Shown one piece after another: positions 3,510 to 62,933 of a DNA stretch of 64,000 bases; position 1 is the stretch's first letter; every line of letters begins with the position of its first letter. This stretch comes from Sulfurovum sp. (lineage in GTDB: Bacteria > Campylobacterota > Campylobacteria > Campylobacterales > Sulfurovaceae). The stretch covers positions 2,688 through 66,687 of the forward strand of contig JAABRH010000001.1 of the NCBI GenBank assembly GCA_011391015.1. Direction: 5' to 3'. Position numbers and translations under genes: made by a program. A model generated the notes under the pieces. It had not been told where the DNA came from, ran no database searches, and saw only the letters and a program-made list of their open reading frames with translations.

Positions 3510-4790
3510 ATGGCAGGATTTAAAGCATTGAAAGGGCAGGGACATACACCGACGTTGTTCATGGCTTTTTTATATTTTGATATGAGTTTTATGGTGTGGA
3601 CGATGTTGGGTCCGCTTGCAACAGAGATTTCTGAAGCTTTGGCAGCAACAGGGTTTATGATCACAGAAGGTCAAAAGGCGACTTTGTTGTCTTTGCCTAT
3701 ACTCTCTGGGGCGTTTTTGAGAATTTTACTGGGTTTCGGTGTCGATAAATTTGGCGCAAAAGCAACCGCTCTGGTAGCACAGGCTATCGTCATCGCAGCA
3801 CTCTTGAGTGCGTATTTTATGGGAGAGACCATCACCTACAATGCATTGCTTTTAATAGCGCTTGGGCTTGGGTTTGCAGGAGCCTCTTTTGCGGTTGCAT
3901 TGCCTCAGGCAGGGCAGTGGTATCCGCCCAAGTCTCAGGGTACGGTGTTGGGGTTTGCCGGTGCAGGTAACATCGGTGTAGTGATCGACTTTTTGTTTGC
4001 ACCCAAAATAGCAGAACTATGGGGCTGGCAATCGGTATTTTTAGTCGGAGCAGTGATGGCGATTGCTGTATTTATCACGTATATGTTTTTGGCAAAAAAT
4101 GCACCAGAATCCATCTATAAAGCAAGACCCAAAAAGCTTATCGATTATGTCAAACTGCTTAAAGACAAAGATACATGGTGGTTTAACCTCTTTTATGCGG
4201 TGAGTTTTGGCGGTTTTGTCGGCTTTGCAGGCTATATGCAAGTCTATTTGATGAATGTGTATCAAGCAGATATGAGTGCCATCGGACTAGACATTTTAGA
4301 TGAAGCCAATGTAAAAGTGGTTGCAGGGTATTTTGGTGCGCTGTGTATCTTTGCCGGTGCAGTGCTTAGACCCGTTGGCGGAGCCATAGCTGATAAAATG
4401 GGCGGGGTGAAATCACTCTACATCTTCTTTGGAACCGTCACTGCTTTGGCATTGCTCAATGCTACTGTCACACTGCCCTTTGCTTTGGCAATCGTGGTGC
4501 TTTTCCTCATCATGGCAAATCTCGGTATGGCAAACGGAGCGGTCTTTCAGCTGGTACCGCAGCGATTTGGCAAAGATATCGGTATCATGACAGGTATCAT
4601 CGGTGCAGCCGGTGGGCTTGGCGGTACAGCGCTGATTAAGACATTTGGATGGTCCAAAGGTGCATTTGATGGCTATGCGGCAGGATTTATGATAGTTGCG
4701 GCCGTTGTACTTGTGGCTATTTTGGGTATTTCACTGGTAAAAACACGCTGGAGAACCACATGGGGGGTTCACTCAGGCGGTATCATTTAA
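3510..4790 (+). CDS. narK: NarK/NasA-family MFS nitrate/nitrite transporter
   Basis: MFS with nitrate-porter signatures GFAGASF, GAGNIG, RPVGG, GMANGAVFQLVP; SD AGGA. Confidence 0.9.
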   Translation: MAGFKALKGQGHTPTLFMAFLYFDMSFMVWTMLGPLATEISEALAATGFMITEGQKATLLSLPILSGAFLRILLGFGVDKFGAKATALVAQAIVIAALLSAYFMGETITYNALLLIALGLGFAGASFAVALPQAGQWYPPKSQGTVLGFAGAGNIGVVIDFLFAPKIAELWGWQSVFLVGAVMAIAVFITYMFLAKNAPESIYKARPKKLIDYVKLLKDKDTWWFNLFYAVSFGGFVGFAGYMQVYLMNVYQADMSAIGLDILDEANVKVVAGYFGALCIFAGAVLRPVGGAIADKMGGVKSLYIFFGTVTALALLNATVTLPFALAIVVLFLIMANLGMANGAVFQLVPQRFGKDIGIMTGIIGAAGGLGGTALIKTFGWSKGAFDGYAAGFMIVAAVVLVAILGISLVKTRWRTTWGVHSGGII

Positions 4791-4800
4791 GATGCTGATG

Positions 4801-6072
4801 CTAGAGATTAAACCCTAGCATCTGACCAAAGAGTTTGTCTTCAGTGAGTCTCATCTTAGCTGACTGCATCAGATTGTTTTTTTCATAATATGCCACAAGT
4901 TCCTGTGCATCCTGTCCTGACATCATAGCCTGATAATACAGGGCAGAAAGCACTTCTTGGTCATTGACAACTACATTTTCTTTTAGTGCCAAGGCTTCTA
5001 CGATGAGTGCGAGCTTGATGCTGTTTTGAGCAGCTTTTTTTACACTTTCTCTGAGTGCATGAAAAAGTGCTTTGTCGTCTTTGTAACGAGTCTGCTCTAC
5101 AGCATCCATCTGCTGGATTGCTTCAAAGCTTTTGGCATCTATCTCCTGCTCGACGACATTTTGTGGCAGGGTAAAGCTAAACAGCTTGAGCAGTTCTTCG
5201 ATGAGTTTTGGTTTGAGCTCCTCATAATAGCGTTGTGTCAAGACATCAGCCGTGATCTGGTCAGCCAGTTTGCCTTTGAGTGTCTCGAGTGTGGCAGTGG
5301 CGTCATTGAGTATTTTTTGTCCAAAGGCATCGTTCAGCTCAAGTGGTTTTTGTTCTTGTATCTCATGCAGTTTGACTTTAAACTCCGTCTCTTTCCCCGC
5401 CAAATCAGCTGACTGATACTCAGTTGGAAAAGTAACAGAGATGGTTTTTTCTTCACCATAGCCCATACCGATGAGCTGTTCTTCAAAACCTGGAATAAAC
5501 GAGTTTGAACCGATCTTGAGGTTAAATTTCTCAGCCGCACCGCCTTCAAAAGCAACCCCGTCCAAAAATCCTTCAAAGTCGATGACGCACGCATCACCAA
5601 ACATCACTGCTCTTGGTTCTGCTATGGCAGTAAATGATGCCTGTTGTGTCGCCATCTCAAGCAGTTTGGTTTCTACTTTTTTGGGGTCTGCTATGGGTTT
5701 TTTGTATGCAGGTATAGCATCTTTGTAGTTGATGGAAGTATCAACAAAAGGGCTTGTGGAGAGTAGTATCTCAAGATAGATACCCTCATCTCTTTTTTCA
5801 TATTTTCTAAATCCTGGCTGTCCCAAGATATTTTCAACATCTACACCTGCCTCTTGGAGACCTTCTTGGATAAATGCTTTGAGTATCTGACTCCCTGCTT
5901 CTTGCTCAAACTGTTCATTGCTCATCTGTGTAGGCTCTGTGTCTGAGGATTGTTGAGGTATTTTTGCCGCTTGTTCTTTGAGCTCTGAGACCTTTTGTTG
6001 GGTCATTGCATCTTCGATTGTACCGATGAGAATCATATTGATATCATCTATTTTTTCAACGCTTACTTTCAC
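4801..6072 (-). CDS. tig: Trigger factor homolog with intact FKBP domain and no ribosome-binding signature
   Basis: IDFEGFLDGVAFEGG, GSNSFIPGFEEQLIGM, VTFPTEY..LAGKETEFKVKLHEI and a TF C-domain; GTG start with SD AAGGA. Confidence 0.85.
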   Translation of the reverse strand: MKVSVEKIDDINMILIGTIEDAMTQQKVSELKEQAAKIPQQSSDTEPTQMSNEQFEQEAGSQILKAFIQEGLQEAGVDVENILGQPGFRKYEKRDEGIYLEILLSTSPFVDTSINYKDAIPAYKKPIADPKKVETKLLEMATQQASFTAIAEPRAVMFGDACVIDFEGFLDGVAFEGGAAEKFNLKIGSNSFIPGFEEQLIGMGYGEEKTISVTFPTEYQSADLAGKETEFKVKLHEIQEQKPLELNDAFGQKILNDATATLETLKGKLADQITADVLTQRYYEELKPKLIEELLKLFSFTLPQNVVEQEIDAKSFEAIQQMDAVEQTRYKDDKALFHALRESVKKAAQNSIKLALIVEALALKENVVVNDQEVLSALYYQAMMSGQDAQELVAYYEKNNLMQSAKMRLTEDKLFGQMLGFNL

Positions 6073-50210: not shown

Positions 50211-52035
<1,825 letters not shown>

Positions 52036-52038
52036 CAT

Positions 52039-53838
52039 ATGTTGGAATTTGAAGAATCCATAGGCAAAATTTGGAATCATGTTTTAACAAAAAAAACAAA
52101 TACGGCGTATGAAGACAAAAGAGTGTTTTTTGAAGATAAAAGTAAAGTTCTAAACATTTTTTATCGTCTTTTGGGCGGTGAAAACGGAAAAGAGTTACAT
52201 GTCACAGATAAACGATTTATCGACACTTCTCGTACGCTGCTTCAAAAAATATCAGGTTCAGGCAAGATATTTTTTCTTGCCTGGCAAGATGAAACAGGTG
52301 TATACCTTCCTTCCTCTTTGGCTTATTTTGACTCACATGAACAAAATAGTATGATGTATATCTGGCTTGTTGCGATGGCTACAAGATTTGATAGATACAG
52401 AGGAAATTTAGTTGAAAAAAACTTTCATGCCTCTTCGGAGTTACTCAATAGATATCCAGGGTTTATAGCTTTTTATAAGAAAGCAGTTGACCAACTCATA
52501 GAAAAAAATGAAAAATTGTCATTTGTTAAGTCTTTAGATGGAGAAAATTTAACAGATGAAGATTATCTTGAGCATTTGGATTTGTATCCATTTCCATTAT
52601 GGCTTTATCCGCCACTGTCTTCTAAAAAAAAGTATAGTGAGTTTGATGATAAAGACGAACCCGTACGAGGCAATAATCAAACAGAAAAAATAGATACGCT
52701 CAAGATGAAAAAACAAGCCAGTCAAATAGATGATAAAAAACAGACCGATGGTTTATTGGCCTTTTTACCCGATGCCTTGATGAGCATTATGGAGCAGGTC
52801 AATGTGGACAGAAGTGAGGATGACAGTTTTGATGAAGATGCGTTATACAATGCTGAAGATTTAGATGAGATTACATTAGGGCAAAAAAAAGCAAATTTAA
52901 ATGCAAGGCTGAAAATGGATCTGGATATTTCTTCCAACTCTAAAGAGGAGTACCCGATAGGAAAAGGATATTTTATAGATGAATGGGATTATTCAAAAGA
53001 CAAATATCTAAAGCACTATGTTTGCATCAAACCACTGATCACAACCAATATAGAACCTGTAGCCTTTCCCTTGCATTTAAAGAAAATATACAAAAAAATT
53101 CAGGCAGAACTTGATCTGATGCAGTTGGACCGCATTAAAAATACAAATCTTCCTTATGGAGATGAGCTAAATTTAGATACATGGATAGAGTATAAAGGTC
53201 ATCAAAACAAATCAGGGCATCATCAAAAATTTTATACAAATTTTGAGCGAAAGATGCGAGACATGTCTACACTTATTTTAGCTGATATCTCACTTTCAAC
53301 TGAAGCAGCAATTACACAAGAAATAAGAGTCATAGATGCCATAAAAGATTCACTGATGGTATTTTCAGAATCACTTGAATATCTAGAAGACAGATTTGCC
53401 ATATATGCTTTTTCATCACTAAAGAATACGAATGTACGGTTCCATATCATCAAAAACTTTAAAGAGAAGTACTCTGACTATGTTCGTGGAAAAATAGATA
53501 ATATAAAACCGGGTTATTATACCCGTTTGGGGGCAGCTATAAGAGAAAGCTCAAAAATTCTCAACAAACAACAAAGCCTCAATAAATTACTTTTGATCAT
53601 CAGTGATGGTAAGCCAAATGATGTTGATCGATATGACGGCAGGTATGGGATAGAAGATACAAAAAAAGCGATACTGGAAGCTAAAAAATTGGGGCTGGTG
53701 CCATTTTGTATCACGATAGACATAGAAGCTAAAGATTATCTATCATACTTGTTCGGAAAAAATGGGTATGTTGTTGTAAGAGATTCTAAAAAATTACCGA
53801 AAATTCTACCAGAAATATATATGAGTTTAACCAAATAA
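52039..53838 (+). CDS. norD: NOR activation protein NorD (VWA)
   Basis: DEWDY, DISLST MIDAS, PGYYTRLGAAIR, SDGKPND. Confidence 0.93.
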   Translation: MLEFEESIGKIWNHVLTKKTNTAYEDKRVFFEDKSKVLNIFYRLLGGENGKELHVTDKRFIDTSRTLLQKISGSGKIFFLAWQDETGVYLPSSLAYFDSHEQNSMMYIWLVAMATRFDRYRGNLVEKNFHASSELLNRYPGFIAFYKKAVDQLIEKNEKLSFVKSLDGENLTDEDYLEHLDLYPFPLWLYPPLSSKKKYSEFDDKDEPVRGNNQTEKIDTLKMKKQASQIDDKKQTDGLLAFLPDALMSIMEQVNVDRSEDDSFDEDALYNAEDLDEITLGQKKANLNARLKMDLDISSNSKEEYPIGKGYFIDEWDYSKDKYLKHYVCIKPLITTNIEPVAFPLHLKKIYKKIQAELDLMQLDRIKNTNLPYGDELNLDTWIEYKGHQNKSGHHQKFYTNFERKMRDMSTLILADISLSTEAAITQEIRVIDAIKDSLMVFSESLEYLEDRFAIYAFSSLKNTNVRFHIIKNFKEKYSDYVRGKIDNIKPGYYTRLGAAIRESSKILNKQQSLNKLLLIISDGKPNDVDRYDGRYGIEDTKKAILEAKKLGLVPFCITIDIEAKDYLSYLFGKNGYVVVRDSKKLPKILPEIYMSLTK

Positions 53839-53847
53839 GGAAAAATA

Positions 53848-54633
53848 ATGTCAAAAATATATTACAAAGAACACGCAAATGAAGTTGAACTTTTTGAAGC
53901 AGCCGCTTCAATGCATTTACCCATCTTAATTAAAGGTCCAACTGGATGTGGTAAAACAAGATTTATAGAAGCTATGGGTGAAAAACTTGGCCGTAAAGTT
54001 TATACGGTAGTATGCCATGATGATTTAAGTGCTGCTGATTTGGTAGGACGTCACCTTATTGATGAAGGTGGGACTTTCTGGCAAGATGGACCACTCACAA
54101 AGGCTGTGCGAGATGGCGGTATCTGTTACCTTGATGAGATTATAGAAGCGAGAAAAGATACAACTGTTGTATTGCACTCTTTGGCGGATTACAGAAGAGT
54201 ATTGCCTATTGACAGAACAGGTGAATTGATAGAAGCACATCCGGATTTTATGCTGGTGGTCTCCTATAATCCAGGGTATCAAAATGTACTTAAAGGCATG
54301 AAACCCAGTACAAAACAACGTTTTATCTCACTTAGTTTTACTTATCCTAATGCTGATATTGAAAAAGAAATCATCATAAAAGAGAGTGGGGTTAATGCTG
54401 ACATAGCTCAAAAGCTTGTAGAGATTGCAGGGGAAATTCGCAAACTAAACGACAACGAAATTGAAGAAGCAGTTTCAACAAGATTACTTGTTTATGCTGC
54501 AAAACTAATCGTAAAAGGGTTTGATGAATATGAGGCTTGTATGCACTCCATAGTAGAATCTTTAAGTGATGATGATGAAGTGATAGAAGTACTGAAGAAA
54601 CTCATAGATTTACACTTTCATTCTAAAAGTTAA
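53848..54633 (+). CDS. norQ: CbbQ/NirQ/NorQ AAA ATPase
   Basis: KGPTGCGKTRF, CYLDEIIEAR, SYNPGYQ, STRLL. Confidence 0.95.
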   Translation: MSKIYYKEHANEVELFEAAASMHLPILIKGPTGCGKTRFIEAMGEKLGRKVYTVVCHDDLSAADLVGRHLIDEGGTFWQDGPLTKAVRDGGICYLDEIIEARKDTTVVLHSLADYRRVLPIDRTGELIEAHPDFMLVVSYNPGYQNVLKGMKPSTKQRFISLSFTYPNADIEKEIIIKESGVNADIAQKLVEIAGEIRKLNDNEIEEAVSTRLLVYAAKLIVKGFDEYEACMHSIVESLSDDDEVIEVLKKLIDLHFHSKS

Positions 54634-55961: not shown

Positions 55962-56026
55962 TTCAGACTCCTGTTGGTTATTTATTCGCCAAAGAATATT
56001 AGTAGACAATTCTAGGACATAAAAGT

Positions 56027-56068
56027 ATTATGACTGCATAGTTGAAACATGAACTTGATTTTCGTCAA
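56027..56068 (-). promoter_or_regulatory. Class II Crp/Fnr-type promoter of the porin gene
   Basis: TTGAT-TTTC-GTCAA (56055-56068) centred 29.5 bp from CATAAT (56027-56032). Confidence 0.65.
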
Positions 56069-56404
56069 GAAAACAAATATAAATTATTATTTTTATACTT
56101 TATGGTGTTATTTTAGAAAAAAGTTATCACATAAGAGTGAAAAAATGAGTATTTAGGGAATGGAGAATAGGCATTTGAGCTGTCAAAGGCAGTTCAAGAA
56201 TACAAAGATGAGATCAAGTCAAAGAGATATTGAGATAGAGGAGTTGGAATGATCACAAAAATAGTTGCCTCTTCTGTTGGAGTAGAGTTGTTCAGAGTTT
56301 TGTGTCAACCTATAGATAAGAATTGTATCACAATTAATTGTCTATGCTCATGTAAGAGAAGCATTTATTTATATGCTTTTTAGACCACGTTTCATTTGAT
56401 AGTT

Positions 56405-56526
56405 TTCCTTATAAAAACCTCCTATTTGGAACATTTTATAAGGTTTTTTATTGAAAGGTACATAGTTGTGGCCCAAAAACGTCGCTACAGCAAATAACCT
56501 TATAAAATATGTTAGATTATAAGGTT
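56405..56526. repeat. Left res-like unit: two palindromes 50 bp apart
   Basis: TTCCTTATAAAA-N17-TTTTATAAGGTT (56405-56445) and AACCTTATAAAA-TATGTTA-GATTATAAGGTT (56496-56526); inverted homolog at 60110-60220. Confidence 0.65.
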
Positions 56527-56549
56527 TTCATTTTTAGGGAATAAAAAGT

Positions 56550-56638
56550 GCGTAACGTCTAGCTCATCCACGGCGGGGAGGGAAGCCCGAATTCAAACTG
56601 GAGTGTTACCCGCCGTTGGATGGAGCGTCTTGTTGGCC
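56550..56638 (-). mobile_element. Integron attC site (89 bp)
   Basis: R'' GGCCAAC, 5 nt, L'' GCTCCATC with extra C, stem with extra A, L' GATGAGC, 5 nt, R' GTTACGC. Confidence 0.88.
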
Positions 56639-57674
56639 TCTTTGATTATGTGTCGGTAAAGTAGTCCGAGGCGATTCTCTTGACCTCGCAGTTGGAAGTT
56701 TTCGCTACTCCGACACCGTTTCGATCCGAGAAGTGTGAAGGCTGCTGGAAAGCTCATGAGAGGACTGGAGGGCTGGGAAATGGGTTGTCGTTACACATTC
56801 GCTAAGTCCCCTTTGCCCACGTTCTTGAGCACCACATACCACAGAACAAGGGCGGTCATGATCTCGATGGGGCCCTGAATGTAATCATGCGCCACAATTG
56901 CAAGGTCCCCAGAGATCAATGTTGAGAACTGCACGAAGTCCCACAACCAATGGACAATCATCAGCGGAATAATGTTCCGCAGGTGCAGCATCAATGGCGC
57001 GAACAACATGCCCCACCGGAATGTGTAACCCAGCTGCTGAAGCACGTCGGGCAAGGGCTCCCCGCCGAAGACATTGACGGAGTGCAGGAGCGCGAAACCA
57101 ACGGCACTGGCAAACATGGCAAGCGCGACCCGCGTCCGACTCGATTGTTCACCGAGGAACGAATGTAGGAGGATTCCGCGGAAGGCCAGTTCCTCGCCAG
57201 TCCCAATCAGCAATGTCACGAAGCCGAAGAAAGCAAAGGTGCTCCAGTTCGGGCTGCTGAAAGGAAAGGCAGACATGGCCTCGAGGCTCACAACCCATTT
57301 GTAGAGCAAAAACACCACGAACGGCGCGAGCCAGACCAGCCGTGTTGCATTGAGCTTGCCGAAACCTGCGTTGCGCCAGCCGAAAAAAAGGATCACGAAG
57401 ACGACGTTGATGATATTGAGAAGTATCAATATCGGCCAGAACGTATCGAACATTTCAGGAGATCCGTAGACGATCCCCTGATGGCCCATGTATATCATAC
57501 CCACGCCCATGATGGCGATGTAGACCAAGGCTGCGAGCATGCCTATCAGCGGCTTGTTTTCAGGTTTTACAGTCATTGCGGCGACCTTTGGCGGGAGGGA
57601 TTCGGGAGCCCTGGGAGTGGATTCAGGTGACTGACTAGATTGCGTGTGAAATGGGTCATTATTTTCTTGGCCAA
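56556..57674 (-). mobile_element. Integron gene cassette (1119 bp, GC-rich)
   Basis: Begins TTGGCC, complementary to its own R'' GGCCAAC; sharp GC shift at both boundaries. Confidence 0.85.
56791..57576 (-). CDS. CPBP (Abi/CAAX) family intramembrane metalloprotease
   Basis: EELAFRG, FALLH, HWLWD motifs; multi-TM; GC-rich codons unlike the host. Confidence 0.9.
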   Translation of the reverse strand: MTVKPENKPLIGMLAALVYIAIMGVGMIYMGHQGIVYGSPEMFDTFWPILILLNIINVVFVILFFGWRNAGFGKLNATRLVWLAPFVVFLLYKWVVSLEAMSAFPFSSPNWSTFAFFGFVTLLIGTGEELAFRGILLHSFLGEQSSRTRVALAMFASAVGFALLHSVNVFGGEPLPDVLQQLGYTFRWGMLFAPLMLHLRNIIPLMIVHWLWDFVQFSTLISGDLAIVAHDYIQGPIEIMTALVLWYVVLKNVGKGDLANV

Positions 57675-57705
57675 CTATTTATTCAGGGAACACAATGTCC
57701 TTTTA
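57669..57705 (-). mobile_element. attI-like site
   Basis: CCTGAAT-AAATA-GTTGGCC has the 7-5-7 layout of attI1 (CCCTAAA-ACAAA-GTTRRRY); plus-strand ATGTCCT repeats near 57695, 57813 and 57892. Confidence 0.7.
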
Positions 57706-57906
57706 TTACGATATTTCAGCATTAAGAGTATATCAAATATGTCTTCATATTAATGAAAATAGGTAGAATTTGTATATTTTTCTAGTTTTTCATAGGATTA
57801 CAATAATTACTTATGTCCTTTTAGGCTGTAAATAGCAATTATTTGGACAAAGTGTTCTGTTATTTGTTGATTTCTGGCAATAACAGACAAAATGTCCTGT
57901 TTACAA

Positions 57907-57937
57907 AACCTTAGAAAATATATAACTTTATGAGCTT
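57907..57937. repeat. Degenerate 31-bp palindromic site
   Basis: AACCTTAGAAAA-TATATAA-CTTTATGAGCTT (arms 11/12 and 9/12 to consensus). Confidence 0.55.
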
Positions 57938-58074
57938 TTTATTTCCGAGTTGCATTTGTAAACACTGCTAAAATTAATTGAATAATTTCCTTTCATACCC
58001 ATAGGGAAATATACCCATGTATATCATATTTTAGTTTTGGCATAATAGAGTATCTTAAAAATAGGAGTTATGGC

Positions 58075-58275
58075 ATGACTGAAGAAAATCACAATAGGTT
58101 AGAAGCATTGAGTCCAGAAGGAAAGGATGCATATATCACAGCTAAGACACGTATATTGGATGCTATAGGAAAGATGGACTTACTTAAAGATGCATCATTA
58201 ACCGATGAAGAGAAAAGTACTATTTACGAATTGCTTGATGACACTGCATTTTTAATGAAAAGTAAAAAACTCTAA
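58075..58275 (+). CDS. Small hypothetical protein (66 aa)
   Basis: SD AGGAG 7 nt upstream, TGGCATAAT -10-like box; helical composition. Confidence 0.65.
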   Translation: MTEENHNRLEALSPEGKDAYITAKTRILDAIGKMDLLKDASLTDEEKSTIYELLDDTAFLMKSKKL

Positions 58276-58405
58276 TATCAATAATATTGTTGTAAAACGG
58301 TTTATCAAATGAAAGTAATGAGTGAAGACCTTGAATAGATATTGTTTATAAAGGAAATCCACTCGAGAAAAAGTTTGAAATAGTGATGTTTAAATAAATA
58401 CATGA

Positions 58406-58436
58406 AACCTTATAAAATATATAATTTTATAAGGTT
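58406..58436. repeat. Perfect 31-bp palindromic site
   Basis: AACCTTATAAAA-TATATAA-TTTTATAAGGTT. Confidence 0.7.
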
Positions 58437-58737
58437 TTTTCTCGTAATATTTTCCCTTCTTTTTTTCAATACAAGACCTGAAAAAAGACCCATAGCATTT
58501 TAAAAATATATACAAAGCCTTTATGTATGGACCCTTATTGCAATCCGACCTCCGACTCATATGTTTGTTGGTGATAATATTTTGCATCTCTTAACCCAAA
58601 AATTAAAATAAAAAAACGCTAAACTCTTCCCCCCATGCGACCTAACTACCCTAAATATTTTACAAGCTAAAAAACTATAATTCTCTCGTTTTATGACCAG
58701 AATTGCCCTATAAATTTTAAGGCCTATTAATCCATAA

Positions 58738-59091
58738 CTAAAATGTTAAAACTTGTTTACTTTGGCTTACCCAGTCAGAAAGTACTTGCATTGTTGAAGA
58801 TATACTCTCATCGAAATAAGGCTCATTTTTATATAATCCACACCGTGCATTACATGTACCGCAAACCTGCAATGACACACCAGTTTCATACATATTTTTA
58901 AGTATAGCGACCAAATCATGGTCATAGCTTTCAGGCTTACTCATTTTATCCCTAGCAAGATCAACGGCATCATTCATTAAAAAAATGTTTACCTTCTCAC
59001 CATTTTTGTGTAGAGTCGAAGCCAAACGAAGTGCATTCCATGTTACGTCTGAACCGTCATACGGATGGTGGTTTAGTATGATCGTTATCAT
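58738..59091 (-). CDS. DsrE/YchN-family protein
   Basis: PYDGSD..WNALRLA, FLMNDAVD, VCGTCNARCG, end QVLTF. Confidence 0.88.
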   Translation of the reverse strand: MITIILNHHPYDGSDVTWNALRLASTLHKNGEKVNIFLMNDAVDLARDKMSKPESYDHDLVAILKNMYETGVSLQVCGTCNARCGLYKNEPYFDESISSTMQVLSDWVSQSKQVLTF

Positions 59092-59528
59092 TATTTTATC
59101 TCCTTCGTGAGTGATTTTAATGTGTTGAACAATGTATTTGTCTGCGCATAAAGTTCGGATTTTTTATCTAGTGTATCCAGAATCATTTGCATATTTTGTG
59201 TTGAAATAACTACATTGGATTCATCTTCATAGATGGCAACACGACATGGCATAAAAGGCGCAAATTGTGTCTCTTCTGTTAAAACCAGTGCTGCAACTTT
59301 GGCTTGACAAACCTCATAAATATATACTTTCTTGTTAATGGGAAAGCCTTTATCTTTAACTACTTCATGATACACATAATGGTGCAAAAGAGCAAAATTA
59401 TATTTTACACACGCAGATTCAACTGCACTCACTACCTCAGATATCTCTTTTGTGCTTTCAACCCTGTAAGTCATCATCTCAAACAACTTCTTTTTACTGA
59501 GTAAAAGCTTCATTAGCGTCTCTAGCAT
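59091..59528 (-). CDS. DUF302 protein
   Basis: IYEVC..KVA, FMPCRVAIYE; SD AAGGA; TAATG coupling to the DsrE gene. Confidence 0.85.
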   Translation of the reverse strand: MLETLMKLLLSKKKLFEMMTYRVESTKEISEVVSAVESACVKYNFALLHHYVYHEVVKDKGFPINKKVYIYEVCQAKVAALVLTEETQFAPFMPCRVAIYEDESNVVISTQNMQMILDTLDKKSELYAQTNTLFNTLKSLTKEIK

Positions 59529-59616
59529 ATATATATTTCCTTTTTAACAAATTAGGCATTTAGCTAAATACTTGTTGTTATGCTATAATAAACTAAATAA
59601 AATGTCAAGGATGATC

Positions 59617-59991
59617 ATGTTGGATATGCACCAAAAGATTAAAATCTTTAAAGCACTGGGAAATGAAACACGTTTTTTAATTTTTAAAAATGTATTTACA
59701 GGTGGCTACACATGTTCATTGGATAAAAAAGATCCCAATGTCACAGTCAGTTCACATGCTACGTGCGTAAGTACCATTGCTGAACATTTTAATTTTTCTT
59801 TACCAACCATTTCAAAACATTTAAAAGAATTACGTGAAGCCAATATTGTCACGATGGAGAAAAAGGGAAATAAAATTTATATAGAACCCAATATTGAAAC
59901 CATAAGAGAATTAGGAGGGTGCTTTACTACCCTTGTAGAAAACTTTGAGGAGAATCGTGAACTTTTTTTTGGGGATGTTGTAGTAAGTTAG
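59617..59991 (+). CDS. ArsR/SmtB-family regulator
   Basis: FKALGNETRFLI, CV..IA..F..SLPTISKHLKELREANIV; TGCTATAAT at 59581. Confidence 0.9.
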   Translation: MLDMHQKIKIFKALGNETRFLIFKNVFTGGYTCSLDKKDPNVTVSSHATCVSTIAEHFNFSLPTISKHLKELREANIVTMEKKGNKIYIEPNIETIRELGGCFTTLVENFEENRELFFGDVVVS

Positions 59992-60109
59992 GCTTGCTGC
60001 AAAAATAAAGCCCTAAGAGTGCTTCCATATGTTCTGCTATGCTGATTTGAGTAATAAGCTCAATTTTTTGAAATGGATAATTATAGCTTTTTGGATTTTA
60101 TCGCTTTAA

Positions 60110-60220
60110 ATCCTGGTAATCTAACATATTTTATAAGGTTCCTCGATGTAGCGATGCTCCGAGACCATTAATATGCAACCAAGTATTTAAAACATGCTAT
60201 ATAGAATATTTTATAATGAA
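60110..60220. repeat. Right res-like unit, inverted relative to 56405-56526
   Basis: Reverse complement contains TCGCTACA-N6-AACCTTATAAAATATGTTAGATTA as at 56482-56519; second degenerate palindrome 50 bp away (60191-60220). Confidence 0.65.
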
Positions 60221-60539
60221 AAGCATATCATCTAGACTACTATTATTTTTAAAATTCGCGTATATATAGACTTTAAAGATCTCCATTTTTCCAAAAGAAG
60301 TTCGATAAAGAATTTATACATGGAGTAGGCCAAGTGCATTGAAAATAAACTTAATTAAAGATCAATAAGATACTTGGATATAAAATTTCTTGCGAAGCAT
60401 TTTATGCAAAATGAACGACAAGACCAATTCTTATGAGGTGTTGCATTTGCGATCCGGGTTGGTGGTGTAAAGTTAGTATGAATTATTTTTAAAAGGTATA
60501 ATAGTCCCCTATAAACTAAATGGGCTAAGGGTTGTGGGC

Positions 60540-62933
60540 ATGATACGAATCATAGTTTTGCTAGGAGTATTTCTGAGTTTTTCTTTTTCCATAGTGGAGA
60601 ATTCGTGCATTATTTGTCACGAGGGCATAGAAGATATCCGCGATAAAAACTCAGAGATGATGCAGGCAATTTTGCAAAAAGCAGAAGAAGCAGACATCAA
60701 AGGCAATGACTGTGTGATTTGTCATGGCGGTAATCCTGAAGCAAAAAAGAAAGAGGATGCACATAGCGGCACACCTAAATATTTTGAAACGCATGAAGGA
60801 CCCAAGGCATATTACCCCTATCCTGCAAGTCCAATGATCAACAAAAATACCTGTGGGATGTGCCATGCCAATCAGGTTGCTACCCAAGAAAACAATCTTA
60901 TGGCGACAGAGCAAGGCAAGATACATGGTGCACTCTGGGGTTTTGGTGCAAAAGAGGGGTATAAGCATACCTATACAAATTTTGGAGGAAAATCTCCTGA
61001 CCCACATGAGCGTCTGGGTACAAAAAAATACCAAAAATATATGGATGAACTTGCCGCGCTAGAGCCACAAGGCTTTTTAAAAGAAACCAAAGCACTTCCT
61101 GCAGCACCTACGGCAGAAGAAGTAGAAAAAGACCCTACACTCTCTGTCTATACCTATCTTAGACAGGAGTGCCTGCGTTGTCATACAGGAGGAAAAGGTC
61201 GTGAGAAACGTGGAGACTTTAGAGGCATAGGGTGTGCATCTTGTCATGTTCCATACTCAAATGAAGGGTTTTATGAGGGGGGCGATAAAAGTATTTCGAA
61301 AAAAGAAGGCGGACATATGCTGGTGCATGCCATACAGTCTTCTCGTGAAGTGAAAGTAAACGTCCATGACATTAACTATTCGGGCATTCCTGTAGAAACC
61401 TGTACCACTTGCCACAACAGAGGCAAGCGCATCGGAGTGAGTTATCAGGGATTGATGGAAACAGAATATGAGGGTACTTTTGACAATAAGGGAAAAGAGC
61501 AGCCCCAGCTTCATACAAAACGCTATATGCATTTAACCGAAGATATACATTATTCCAAAGGTATGCTATGCCAAGACTGTCACACTACCAATGATATGCA
61601 TGGTGATGGGTTTTTCAGAGGAGCAAACTTAGGTGCCGTAGAAGTAGAATGCCAAGACTGCCACGGTACAACGACCAAATATCCATGGGAGCTTCCTTTG
61701 GGATATAGCGATGAGTTTGCTACTAAACCCAAAGAAGGCAAAGCCAGAGGCACAACGCATACTTTGGCAGCATATTTGAGACAAGGGTCTATCCCAGATG
61801 ACACAGGAGACGGATTTTTGCTTTCTGCTAGGGGCAATCCGCTGACCAAGGCAGTACGAAAAGGCGACAAAATTGTGATGCACCTGTCTTCGGGTAAAGA
61901 TATCACCCTTTCTCCTCTTAAAACACTTAAAAAAGAGCATAAAATTTCGCAGGAAGGTTTGATTGCCATGGATCAAATCCAAGGACATACAGACAAGTTG
62001 GAATGTTACACCTGCCATGCGACATGGGCGCCTCAGTGTTATGGCTGTCATGTCAAAGTGGACTACTCCGGTGGAAAACAAAACCCTGATTTTTTGGAAG
62101 CCTCAAAGCATCATGTCAATGGCAAAACAGGAGATGTGGAAACACTCAAGGATTTTCTGGTTGACGGACAGGTAACAGAAACGAGATCCTACTTGAGATG
62201 GGAAGACCCGGCACTGAGTCAGAATGGAGAAGGACGTATCTCTCCAACAATACCGGGTTGTCAAGTCGTCCTTACCGTCATAGGTAAAGAGGGTAATGCT
62301 CTGCTTCAGAATCATATCTTTAAGATACCAAATGTGGAGGGTGCCGGCAATGAAGGTATTAATTCAATTACTATGTCTCCTGTGCAACCCCACACGGTAA
62401 GTAAAGCTTCCCGAACCTGTGAAAGTTGTCACAGCAGTCTTAAGGCTATGGGACGCGGTATAAATGGAGGAAAATATTTTGCAGACCAAAGCAAAACCAC
62501 CATTGTGGACTTGATGCGAGCTGATAAAACCCTTTTGCCTTCACAGGTAGACGAGCAGATCCCTGCCATACCGAATCTTAAACACGATTTCTCGGTGATG
62601 ATAGATGAAAACGGTACACAGGTGCAAACTTTAGGGAACCATTGGAAACTTTCACAGGCACTTGATAATGAGACAAGAGCAAAGCTTGATAGAAGCGGTG
62701 CTTGTCTGAGTTGCCACAAAGAGATGCCAGATGAAGATCTAGCCGTATCGCTTATGGTCCATACAGCAAAGTTTGCAGGGGTGAAAATAGACAACGAGAT
62801 GCATAATACTATTGTCCATAAAACTATCTTGCTGAGCGCATGGTTTCAGGTGCTGGGCGGATTGCTTCTTGGCGGAGGGATTGTTTATTGGTTTCTGGGA
62901 CGCAAGAAGCAAATGCGTTGCAAAAAAGATTAA
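60540..62933 (+). CDS. Membrane-anchored multiheme cytochrome c (12 CxxCH)
   Basis: Signal peptide; CIICH, CVICH, CGMCH, CLRCH, CASCH, CTTCH, CQDCH twice, CYTCH, CYGCH, CESCH, CLSCH; C-terminal TM helix. Confidence 0.92.
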   Translation: MIRIIVLLGVFLSFSFSIVENSCIICHEGIEDIRDKNSEMMQAILQKAEEADIKGNDCVICHGGNPEAKKKEDAHSGTPKYFETHEGPKAYYPYPASPMINKNTCGMCHANQVATQENNLMATEQGKIHGALWGFGAKEGYKHTYTNFGGKSPDPHERLGTKKYQKYMDELAALEPQGFLKETKALPAAPTAEEVEKDPTLSVYTYLRQECLRCHTGGKGREKRGDFRGIGCASCHVPYSNEGFYEGGDKSISKKEGGHMLVHAIQSSREVKVNVHDINYSGIPVETCTTCHNRGKRIGVSYQGLMETEYEGTFDNKGKEQPQLHTKRYMHLTEDIHYSKGMLCQDCHTTNDMHGDGFFRGANLGAVEVECQDCHGTTTKYPWELPLGYSDEFATKPKEGKARGTTHTLAAYLRQGSIPDDTGDGFLLSARGNPLTKAVRKGDKIVMHLSSGKDITLSPLKTLKKEHKISQEGLIAMDQIQGHTDKLECYTCHATWAPQCYGCHVKVDYSGGKQNPDFLEASKHHVNGKTGDVETLKDFLVDGQVTETRSYLRWEDPALSQNGEGRISPTIPGCQVVLTVIGKEGNALLQNHIFKIPNVEGAGNEGINSITMSPVQPHTVSKASRTCESCHSSLKAMGRGINGGKYFADQSKTTIVDLMRADKTLLPSQVDEQIPAIPNLKHDFSVMIDENGTQVQTLGNHWKLSQALDNETRAKLDRSGACLSCHKEMPDEDLAVSLMVHTAKFAGVKIDNEMHNTIVHKTILLSAWFQVLGGLLLGGGIVYWFLGRKKQMRCKKD

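Follow-up and report, generated by a model that had tools for sequence, protein, structure and literature searches.

A candidate integron-like cassette system with two classes of 31-bp palindromic sites in Sulfurovum

Results

Two convergent cassette arrays in the window

The window analysed here is a stretch of 64,000 nt from Sulfurovum sp. (Campylobacterota; Sulfurovaceae), positions 2,688 to 66,687 of contig JAABRH010000001.1 in GenBank assembly GCA_011391015.1, a metagenome-assembled genome (MAG) of 1.74 Mb in 111 contigs that is about 85% complete. Between 56.37 and 60.23 kb it carries two convergent arrays of gene cassettes without a recombinase, delimited by 31-bp palindromes. Each palindrome has two 12-bp arms around a 7-bp spacer (12-7-12) and belongs to class A (consensus AACCTTATAAAA-TATGTTA-GATTATAAGGTT) or class B (consensus AACCTTATAAAA-TATATAA-CTTTATRAGGTT, terminal copies being nearer to a perfect palindrome). 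The left array runs rightward from a remnant of srec, the small tyrosine recombinase gene described below, through an outer palindrome (pal2), a leader and an A site to a first cassette, a decayed B site, a second cassette and a final B site. The right array runs leftward from a decayed pal2 and leader through the A site at 60110 into an arsR/DUF302/dsrE module, and has no B site of its own (Table 1). An arsR homologue lies beside a class A site in two further genomes (G194 and G129), in the same position and orientation as in the window.

Table 1. Features of the two arrays, in window coordinates
Feature	Position	Strand	Remarks
srec remnant, about the first 15 codons, decayed	56365..56404	-	reads KTIK then stop; protein-level trace KTIK*NVV
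Outer palindrome pal2, CCTTATAAAA-N17-TTTTATAAGG	56405..56445	+	srec start codon in left arm of intact copies
50-nt leader spacer, conserved	56446..56495	+	family consensus GGTTTTCTAT..TTTATGG..TCGCTACAGCGAAT; 24 units aligned, from different genomes
Class A site, head of left array	56496..56526	+	12-7-12, spacer TATGTTA
IntI-type attI simple site, right half, to the G|TT crossover	56527..56555	-	minus strand reads TTACGCAC..
Canonical integron cassette, GC ~55%	56556..57674	-	starts TTGGCC; CPBP/Rce1-like protease gene 56791-57576
attC of the integron cassette	about 56550-56638	-	R'' GGCCAAC, R' G|TTACGC; fold -16.8 kcal/mol, z -2.5
IntI-type attI region without integrase gene	57675..57906	-	similarity to intI-adjoining regions
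Class B site, decayed	57907..57937	+	spacer TATATAA; no hairpin
Cassette with 66-aa gene (58075-58275) and its own promoter	57938..58405	+	Pfam: no family match
Class B site, terminal type	58406..58436	+	spacer TATATAA; perfect palindrome
Module of right array	58437..60109	-	Pfam: dsrE-like 58738-59091 (-), DUF302 59091-59528 (-), arsR-family 59617-59991 (+)
Class A site, decayed; head of the leftward right-hand array	60110..60140	-	spacer TATGTTA; 3 mismatches
Decayed leader and pal2 of right-hand unit	60141..60226	-	outer arm on plus strand ..TTTTATAATGAAAAGC.. = ATG-AAA remnant of srec start

The original prediction, made from the window alone, had described these four palindromes, their two spacer classes (the A sites inverted to each other, the B sites direct), the three modules that they separate (attI plus cassette, 66-aa gene, arsR/DUF302/dsrE) and the lack of a recombinase gene in the window. 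All of this stands. A dyad search with up to three mismatches recovered the sites at 56496 and 58406, a repeat finder placed four copies in register (starts 56495, 57906, 58405 and 60109), and no recombinase gene was found on the window's contig. The homology of the two outer units of about 120 bp, in inverted orientation, is equally clear: positions 56461-56528 and 60108-60175 form an inverted 68-nt pair of 75% identity, and the right-hand unit is 72% identical over 125 nt to the corresponding unit of Sulfurovum sp. CS9 (G161). The spacer of 17 nt in the left outer palindrome was read correctly. On the right, the supposed spacer of 6-7 nt, one helical turn less, was a misreading: about 60186-60226 is a decayed homologue of the palindrome with the 16-17-nt spacer.

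The state of the sites varies. Only the site at 58406 is a perfect palindrome (0 mismatches; fold -11.2 kcal/mol, z -6.7). The site at 56496 has two changes in its right arm, that at 57907 is changed in both arms and has lost its hairpin (0 kcal/mol), and that at 60110 is decayed in one arm; pal2 at 56405 folds with -7.7 kcal/mol (z -3.3). Chance does not yield such dyads: there were no matches in 100 shuffles of the window at up to three mismatches, none in shuffled whole genomes at up to seven, and none for a reversed control pattern in 201 genomes of the family. A scan of 56000-60600 against Rfam, at E up to 1, gave no match.

Distribution of the sites

The dyad pattern, searched with up to three mismatches, is present in 40 of the 201 family genomes, including 35 of the 66 sampled from Sulfurovum, the window's genus, and 3 of 14 and 1 of 9 genomes of two sister genera. 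Copies per genome range from 1 to 89; the NBC37-1 chromosome, for example, has ten sites in at least seven scattered places. Exact copies of the class A 31-mer were found in 48 stretches, nearly all of them from Sulfurovum/Sulfurovaceae records, CS9 among them, and the pattern was not found in the viral contigs searched. That these are the sites of a site-specific recombination system, restricted to Sulfurovum and a small number of sister genera, is rather probable as part of the overall explanation developed in the Discussion.

Anatomy of the arrays

Sites and open reading frames (ORFs) were mapped in about 40 fetched regions, of which 39 loci with 116 sites gave the order statistics. The recurring array consists of a leader of ~95 bp, one class A site, and one to five cassettes, each followed by a same-strand class B site. 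In the leader, pal2, a dyad built from the same half-site with 16-17 nt between its arms, is combined with a conserved stretch of 50 nt that ends in TCGCTACAGCGAAT. The cassettes hold one to three genes in either orientation, and the median spacing of the sites is 964 bp. In 22 of 31 same-strand clusters the order reads A and then one or more B. Such patterns support the view that the A and B spacers may be separate compatibility classes, with A heading arrays and B separating cassettes.

There are departures from this plan. At composite junctions a B site is followed, after 6 nt or a shortened leader of 42 nt, by an A-type site with a variant left arm (A'); when folded, the composite gives a bulged hairpin like that of an attC (-14.3 kcal/mol, z -5.3). 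Some A and B sites stand alone between genes, with no leader. Rare hybrid sites combine a B spacer with an A arm or an A spacer with a B arm, or have the mixed spacer TATATTA. Both A and B are intergenic hairpins followed by a short T run. Leaders without a recombinase, both leaders of the window included, have kept 8-45 nt of the 5' end of srec and therefore descend from srec-linked platforms. A seemingly conserved leader micro-ORF of nine codons (M-x-C-K-R-R-Y-S-E) was discarded, its frame being broken in a second leader variant.

Cassettes differ at fixed loci

Comparison of related genomes shows what the sites delimit. In the slot after a gene of ~700 aa, the flanks are conserved right up to the sites in four genomes, and what lies between them is a single gene (303 aa) between A and B in G045, three genes (533, 142 and 324 aa) between A and B in G025, a three-cassette array in G173, and again a single gene (103 aa) between A and B in G169. 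G169 and G181 differ in the array held by a second slot, beside a 725-aa gene. Where G173 has a lone site, G169 has pal2, leader, A, a 177-aa gene and B; here the homology of the left flank stops in pal2 and that of the right flank begins at B. G173 carries a 176-aa cassette in two of its arrays, and in G181 this cassette comes straight after A; its homology extends from a few bases past the preceding site to just past its own B site. (The recurrent 176-aa protein was also considered as an enzyme and turned out to be a secreted protein instead.) Finally, positions 57905-58260 of the window, comprising the B site and the 66-aa gene, are 95.5% identical to an array in another Sulfurovaceae MAG, where the upstream neighbour is different. 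These comparisons support the conclusion that the sites delimit exchangeable modules and mark presence/absence breakpoints between genomes, the outcome that had been proposed as a check on the original prediction. Of the module system driven in trans that it had postulated, the exchangeable modules are thus borne out, and the enzyme must either act in trans or have been lost.

A candidate recombinase, srec

In the list of CS9 sites, two inverted A sites lie 750 bp apart around a gene with a weak match to PF00589, which we call srec (L219:7014-7577, minus strand; about 1,380,014-1,380,577 of NZ_CP180410.1; 188 aa). The match (59.5 bits, residues 9-179) covers the entire catalytic domain and nothing else. 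Residues R47, K74, H139, R142, H165 and Y174 are invariant in 13 homologues, and srec thus has the R-K-H-R-H/W-Y residues of the tyrosine recombinase superfamily. Its best solved relative is XerA (4a8e), in residues 106-263, the catalytic domain. The best of the Xer models, also XerA, gives 55.6 bits against a cut-off of 220, and the alignment begins at model position 93, so the N-terminal domain is absent. Lacking both the curated score and the N-terminal core-binding domain, srec lies outside the Xer family proper; against the IntI model (TIGR02249) it scores 27.7 bits, with a cut-off of 265. The srec family consists of Campylobacterota proteins of ~190-200 aa that score far below every curated Xer or IntI model and are labelled just 'site-specific integrase'. 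A literature search found no description of the sites or of the family beyond such automatic labels.

The left arm of pal2 contains the srec start codon (TTTCATTATAAAA, which backwards reads TTTTATAATGAAA). The whole leader and the A site are therefore the divergent upstream region of srec, as attI is for intI. The ~120-bp units of the window, which had been taken for res-like sites, are of this kind: in intact copies, such a unit is the upstream region of a small tyrosine recombinase gene with its ATG in the outer palindrome. Five intact full-length copies are known from three genomes, one in CS9, two in G192, which is closely related to Sulfurovum sp. AR, and two in the MAG MFD03804.bin.3.239. 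All five share one layout, namely A, leader, pal2 with the ATG, srec, and a second, outward-facing A site beyond the 3' end, and B-delimited arrays run outward on either side. A fragment of srec is present beside an A site in a sister genus. Two genomes of the genus sample have srec at no less than 85% identity, and they rank first and second in number of sites (89 and 34). The expectation that the sites would be found next to a serine or tyrosine recombinase gene therefore holds in part: srec, a tyrosine recombinase, adjoins them in three genomes, most arrays in the about 40 mapped regions have no adjoining recombinase, and a serine recombinase is unsupported.

In the window, positions 56365-56530 are 81% identical to the A site, leader and first 45 nt of srec in CS9. 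A protein-level search of the window for an srec pseudogene gave nothing past the first ~15 codons, and no srec homologue was found in the MAG, about 85% complete as it is.

More distant relatives of srec have sites of their own. The homologues in the sister genus g8 (~52% identity) have a like upstream architecture with another half-site, ACACTATAAA-N10-TTTATAGTGT, and their upstream region also holds a CCTATTTTATGGG motif and two further half-sites. Three genomes each have a single copy of the g8 palindrome, in every case ~140 bp upstream of the gene; the g8 homologue is an integrase that has a site of its own and lacks arrays. The homologue in G130 and that in Aliarcobacter cryaerophilus, the latter of 47% identity, have ACCTTATAAA dyads immediately ahead of the ATG, one spacer being short and the other long. 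Recombinase subtype and half-site thus covary. Taken together, these data make srec the likely enzyme of the sites.

Several further observations concern srec and its relatives. In CS9 a second divergent A pair (L220:3564-4594; G161:C1 about 1,087,563-1,088,593), one of the two with a leader, encloses two ORFs of 110 and 103 aa in place of srec, with no detectable similarity to it. The cassettes near srec in Sulfurovum sp. AR (AJLE01000002.1, L247:4900-11600) encode SUKH_5/SMI1_KNR4, MafI2, Imm44, T6SS_Tdi1_C and ankyrin proteins, which suggests that the arrays partly store orphan immunity genes. In Sulfurimonas denitrificans DSM 1251 (L248:8001-9154) and A. cryaerophilus (L250:6343-7496), a gene of the srec family (~200 aa) overlaps a downstream serine resolvase gene (184 aa), and the pair is conserved in the two species.

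A classical integron piece nested in the left array

Two cassette systems are nested here: what the left array carries as its first cassette is a captured classical integron attI, itself holding a single attC cassette. Positions 57672-57899 are 70% identical over 244 nt to the intI-adjoining region of CS9, and 57675-57906 are 65% identical to the region beside an intI-like gene in G035. The attI regions of the window and of CS9 end at a common ..AATAAATAG|TT junction, after which the cassette begins, and the same junction is present in G035. The nested piece is accordingly an attI proper, a region of intI-adjoining type that ends at the G|TT insertion point, and its CPBP cassette (56556-57674) is the only one in the window with a classical attC. 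The arrangement of A, ~25 nt, ..GTAAC| and attC is also present in G169, G139 and G045, where genuine attC cassettes lie ~25 nt from A. In addition, a shortened form of the window's attI directly abuts B in most cassettes with backward-pointing genes. The presence of an attI region and an attC cassette inside the arrays indicates that classical attI sites became cargo of srec arrays.

CS9 itself has a complete classical integron (L170:11000-16858; G161:C1 about 1,641,000-1,646,848), with an IntI of 402 bits (TIGR02249), an attI and cassettes with classical GC-rich attC sites; there are no A or B sites within 20 kb of it. The GC content of the host is 41%, and the cassettes seem to come from high-GC donors, like the CPBP cassette of the window.

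Other enzymes examined

Several other enzymes were considered as the driver of the sites. Clustering of PF00589 proteins from six site-bearing and five site-free genomes left two universal Xer-like genes as the common tyrosine recombinases. An IntI is present in CS9, and none was found in G173, G169, G181, G045 or the window's own genome, where TIGR02249 had no match above the cut-off; intI-like genes also occur in site-free genomes (G141 and G035). A resolvase-like gene of ~230 aa was found in every Sulfurovum genome tested, with or without sites (L195:1498-2172 and orthologues in G173, G181, G045, G161, G169, G003, G035, G054, G122 and G141). Its product has a C-terminal HTH and the N-terminus MVYGYMRQV, is missing the serine at the expected catalytic position, and is encoded beside a MoaC-like gene. 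It looks like a domesticated, probably non-catalytic relative of serine recombinases. Repetitive extragenic palindromes (REP) or bacterial interspersed mosaic elements with a RAYT transposase were rejected as well: Y1_Tnp was not found in G173 and G169, which have 31 and 26 sites, and there are 1-89 copies per genome versus the hundreds of such repeats.

Surroundings of the arrays

To the left of the arrays, a porin gene borders the left array, and immediately to its left (50662-54633) lie three genes, one norB-like, one of VWA type in the position of norD and one of AAA type in that of norQ, all named from their translations only. To the right there is a gene for a 799-aa cytochrome. A search for synteny via this gene gave 13 relatives, which had nothing in common with the window but the gene itself; a comparison with an empty site is thus impossible at this exact locus. 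Relatives with the right-hand cytochrome gene lack the window's left flank, which places the arrays at a break in synteny.

Elsewhere in the window's genome, a second array is located on contig C84 and lone sites on C61. The array on C84 (L001:1-5648) has GGDEF, pilin-like, HhH and haem-binding cassettes. The same contig carries an IS4-family transposase gene (101-1465) inserted into a sequence of ~110 bp that recurs at 5110-5215, and a tRNA 3' fragment (about 3963-4020) beside the leader-A unit (3597-3715). On contig C79 (L003:4369-4624), a paralogue of the 66-aa cassette gene, 77% identical in nucleotide sequence including the promoter, is flanked by housekeeping-type genes and has no palindromes. 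It may represent the kind of source from which the 66-aa cassette was captured.

Discussion

The anatomy and distribution of the arrays, the variability of their cassettes at fixed loci, the linkage of srec with the sites and the covariation of recombinase and half-site are all matters of observation. They are explained best, we believe with reasonable though not high confidence, by an integron-like cassette system in which srec-derived platforms carry arrays headed by A, B sites separate the cassettes, and the window holds two arrays that have no recombinase. Each array would start from a platform made up of a 5' remnant of srec, pal2, the 50-nt leader and a class A site. We infer that dimers of srec would occupy the 12-bp arms, with strand exchange within the 7-bp spacer or next to it. 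Recombination between B sites would excise or insert single cassettes, whereas recombination of A with A or A' would move larger units, or invert the DNA between inverted A sites. Pal2 and the leader would probably be operators of srec or accessory sites for it. With two differences between their spacers, classes A and B should be largely orthogonal (heterospecific), and the rare hybrid sites would fit an occasional exchange between A and B with segregation of the heteroduplex spacer. For the window, the inversion between its A sites and the excision between its B sites that had been predicted are reasonable expectations; its arrays are probably inert unless srec is supplied in trans.

Several points weigh against this explanation. 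First, most site-bearing genomes have no srec, including the complete genomes of G045, G025 and G169. The cassettes differ even between the close relatives G045 and G025, both without srec, so that srec would have worked in trans or at an earlier time, or else some other process has a share in this, for example homologous exchange following transformation. Second, a simple central crossover between A and B alone cannot yield the order A-B-B-B, and the boundary of the cassette is at the right edge of A in some comparisons and inside B in others. Since the boundary data do not fix the crossover, the route could also be a one-strand mechanism like that of integrons, or one that involves the composite B-A' site. 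Third, a common variant of A (AACG..) breaks the hairpin, and the window site at 57907 is decayed. Finally, we know of little precedent for a tyrosine recombinase without the N-terminal domain acting on 12-bp arms.

Among the alternatives, the one that survives best is that the palindromes are operators of srec and/or AT-rich terminators or insulators, and that the cassette pattern arose by homologous recombination at blocks of 30-100 bp after natural transformation. We consider it unlikely. It would account for the intergenic position of the A and B hairpins and their short T run, for the operator-like overlap of pal2 with the start of srec, and for the differing cassettes of array genomes, most of which have no srec; conserved blocks beside the sites, such as the attI motif, are possible homology anchors. 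However, the exact 31-mer is conserved across species and its flanks are not, many sites lie upstream of promoters and not after genes, and inverted A sites bracket srec in every intact copy. Nor would it explain the uniform orientation and the order of A then B in the clusters counted above, or hybrid sites that join at the boundary of spacer and arm.

It is more improbable still that the sites are ends, or joined ends, of a non-autonomous miniature inverted-repeat transposable element or insertion sequence (IS), the 31 bp being two abutted 12-bp terminal inverted repeats of elements that insert into each other's junctions. Between G173 and G169, an element bounded by TTTTATAAGGTT...AACCTTATAAAA does appear to lie inside a pre-existing palindrome, and lone A and B sites in intergenic DNA would also fit. 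On the other hand, there was no sign of a target-site duplication, the spacers are conserved in two classes, unlike the variable duplications of such elements, and the gene linked to the sites is a tyrosine recombinase. No DDE or HUH transposase is common to the site-rich genomes, two of which, G173 and G169, lack Y1_Tnp.

Two known tyrosine recombinases would be alternative drivers. The modules could be moved by the host XerC/XerD, as in the pdif modules of Acinetobacter or in integrative mobile elements exploiting Xer (IMEX), and the original prediction had drawn the pdif analogy. The two Xer-like genes are indeed the only tyrosine recombinases common to all site-bearing genomes, and 9 of the 11 positions in the E. 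coli XerD arm agree with the centre of site A (ATATGTTAGAT). They are equally present in site-free genomes, however, and the arms differ from the Sulfurovum dif arms (TTTTAATAGAA / TTATGTTAATC; PMC2731167). The geometry is 12-7-12 and not the 11-6-11 of a 28-bp site whose XerC and XerD arms enclose a centre of 6 bp. Within arrays the sites are direct and not alternating, and they are spread over dozens of loci instead of one terminus locus. As a description of the site type the analogy therefore fails, and we give a Xer-driven system very little chance.

Equally doubtful is a role of IntI in which B would be used as a miniature attC and A as a site of attI type. In its favour, B starts with AAC and ends with GTT, the composite B-A' folds like an attC, B abuts a true attI in many cassettes, real attC cassettes lie beside A, and CS9, the genome richest in sites, has an IntI. 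Against this, five genomes with sites, the window's among them, have yielded no IntI, G141 and G035 have intI-like genes without having sites, and the CS9 integron stands apart from any A or B site and uses classical attC. Moreover, B is only 31 bp long and has neither an L box nor extrahelical bases. The weakest alternative, a res-like multi-subsite target of a serine resolvase or invertase, takes up the two dyad subsites with different spacers in ~120 bp and the units that bracket the region in inverted orientation, and it can be practically dismissed, given that the gene physically fused to the unit encodes a tyrosine recombinase and that the sole common resolvase-like gene is universal in the tested genomes of the genus and lacks the catalytic serine.

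The system favoured here, with srec as candidate enzyme, works like an integron and like rAID-1; it belongs to neither group, and the Xer/pdif, res and REP systems do not include it either. As in integrons, a tyrosine recombinase gene diverges from a primary site that heads a one-directional cassette array, and an imperfect palindrome follows each cassette. The cassettes are promoter-poor or self-promoted, encode small secreted, immunity-type or unknown proteins, and differ between relatives; arrays without an integrase (in integrons, clusters of attC sites lacking integron-integrases, CALINs) are common. In contrast to IntI, srec is a catalytic domain of 188 aa far below the IntI cut-off, and no IntI stands next to an array, that of CS9 being far from any A or B site. 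The sites are 31 bp long with two spacer classes, whereas integron attC sites measure 57-141 bp and have R and L boxes; no such attC with R''-L''...L'-R' boxes follows each cassette here. The Sulfurovum system also has many platforms per genome, two arrays per recombinase gene, and genes in either orientation.

The parallel with rAID-1 of Bacteroidales concerns content as well as layout. There, orphan immunity genes, with repetitive sequences between them, form arrays behind a gene for an XerD-like recombinase (Ross et al., bioRxiv 10.1101/471110). In both systems a non-IntI tyrosine recombinase heads arrays of small accessory genes with repeated intergenic motifs, and the cassettes near srec in Sulfurovum sp. 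AR include SUKH/SMI1, MafI2, Imm44 and Tdi1-type immunity families. Yet the two belong to different phyla, their recombinase families and repeats are not related, rAID genes all run in one direction downstream of the recombinase, and defined palindromic site classes are not described for them (Ross et al., bioRxiv 10.1101/471110).

Other systems share single traits. In pdif modules and IMEX, too, short dyad sites flank accessory modules and the recombinase is encoded elsewhere, but pdif sites are 28-bp mimics of dif with distinct XerC and XerD arms, alternate in orientation and use the housekeeping Xer pair, while the Sulfurovum sites have identical arms, are direct and are linked to a dedicated recombinase. 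With Tn3/gamma-delta res and with attI, the Sulfurovum system shares the placement of the recombination site within the promoter region of the recombinase gene itself, and the presence of more than one dyad. It differs from res in that the enzyme is a tyrosine and not a serine recombinase, with no cognate serine recombinase beside or co-occurring with the sites, that a resolution function is not evident and that the sites form arrays. The two spacer classes would keep reactions apart in the manner of heterospecific lox variants, a likeness to lox/FRT. FimB and FimE are small tyrosine recombinases that flip one promoter segment and have no associated cassette arrays. By description, srec resembles them in size (theirs is about 200 residues), in having little beyond the catalytic domain and in the inverted target sites near its gene.

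Integrons are the textbook machine dedicated to the capture of gene cassettes. To our knowledge, analogues that do not depend on IntI are few (for example, rAID-1), and none has defined sites. Against this background it is conceivable, at somewhat less than even chances in our estimate, that the Sulfurovaceae possess a second, IntI-independent capture system with a recombinase reduced to a minimal catalytic domain, two heterospecific classes of 31-bp sites and dozens of platforms per genome, among whose shuffled cassettes are captured attI sites of integrons, themselves loaded with integron cassettes. Both the sites and the candidate enzyme are explicit, and the cultured strain CS9, whose genome is complete, has the full set, so that the proposal is directly testable. 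If it is true, a recombinase of 188 residues with a 31-bp site in two orthogonal spacer classes would make an attractive minimal tool for genome engineering. The attI nested in the arrays suggests a way in which integron platforms could spread without their integrase, which would bear on the origin of CALINs. In the Campylobacterota of vents and sediments, the arrays mark a hypervariable pool of accessory genes.

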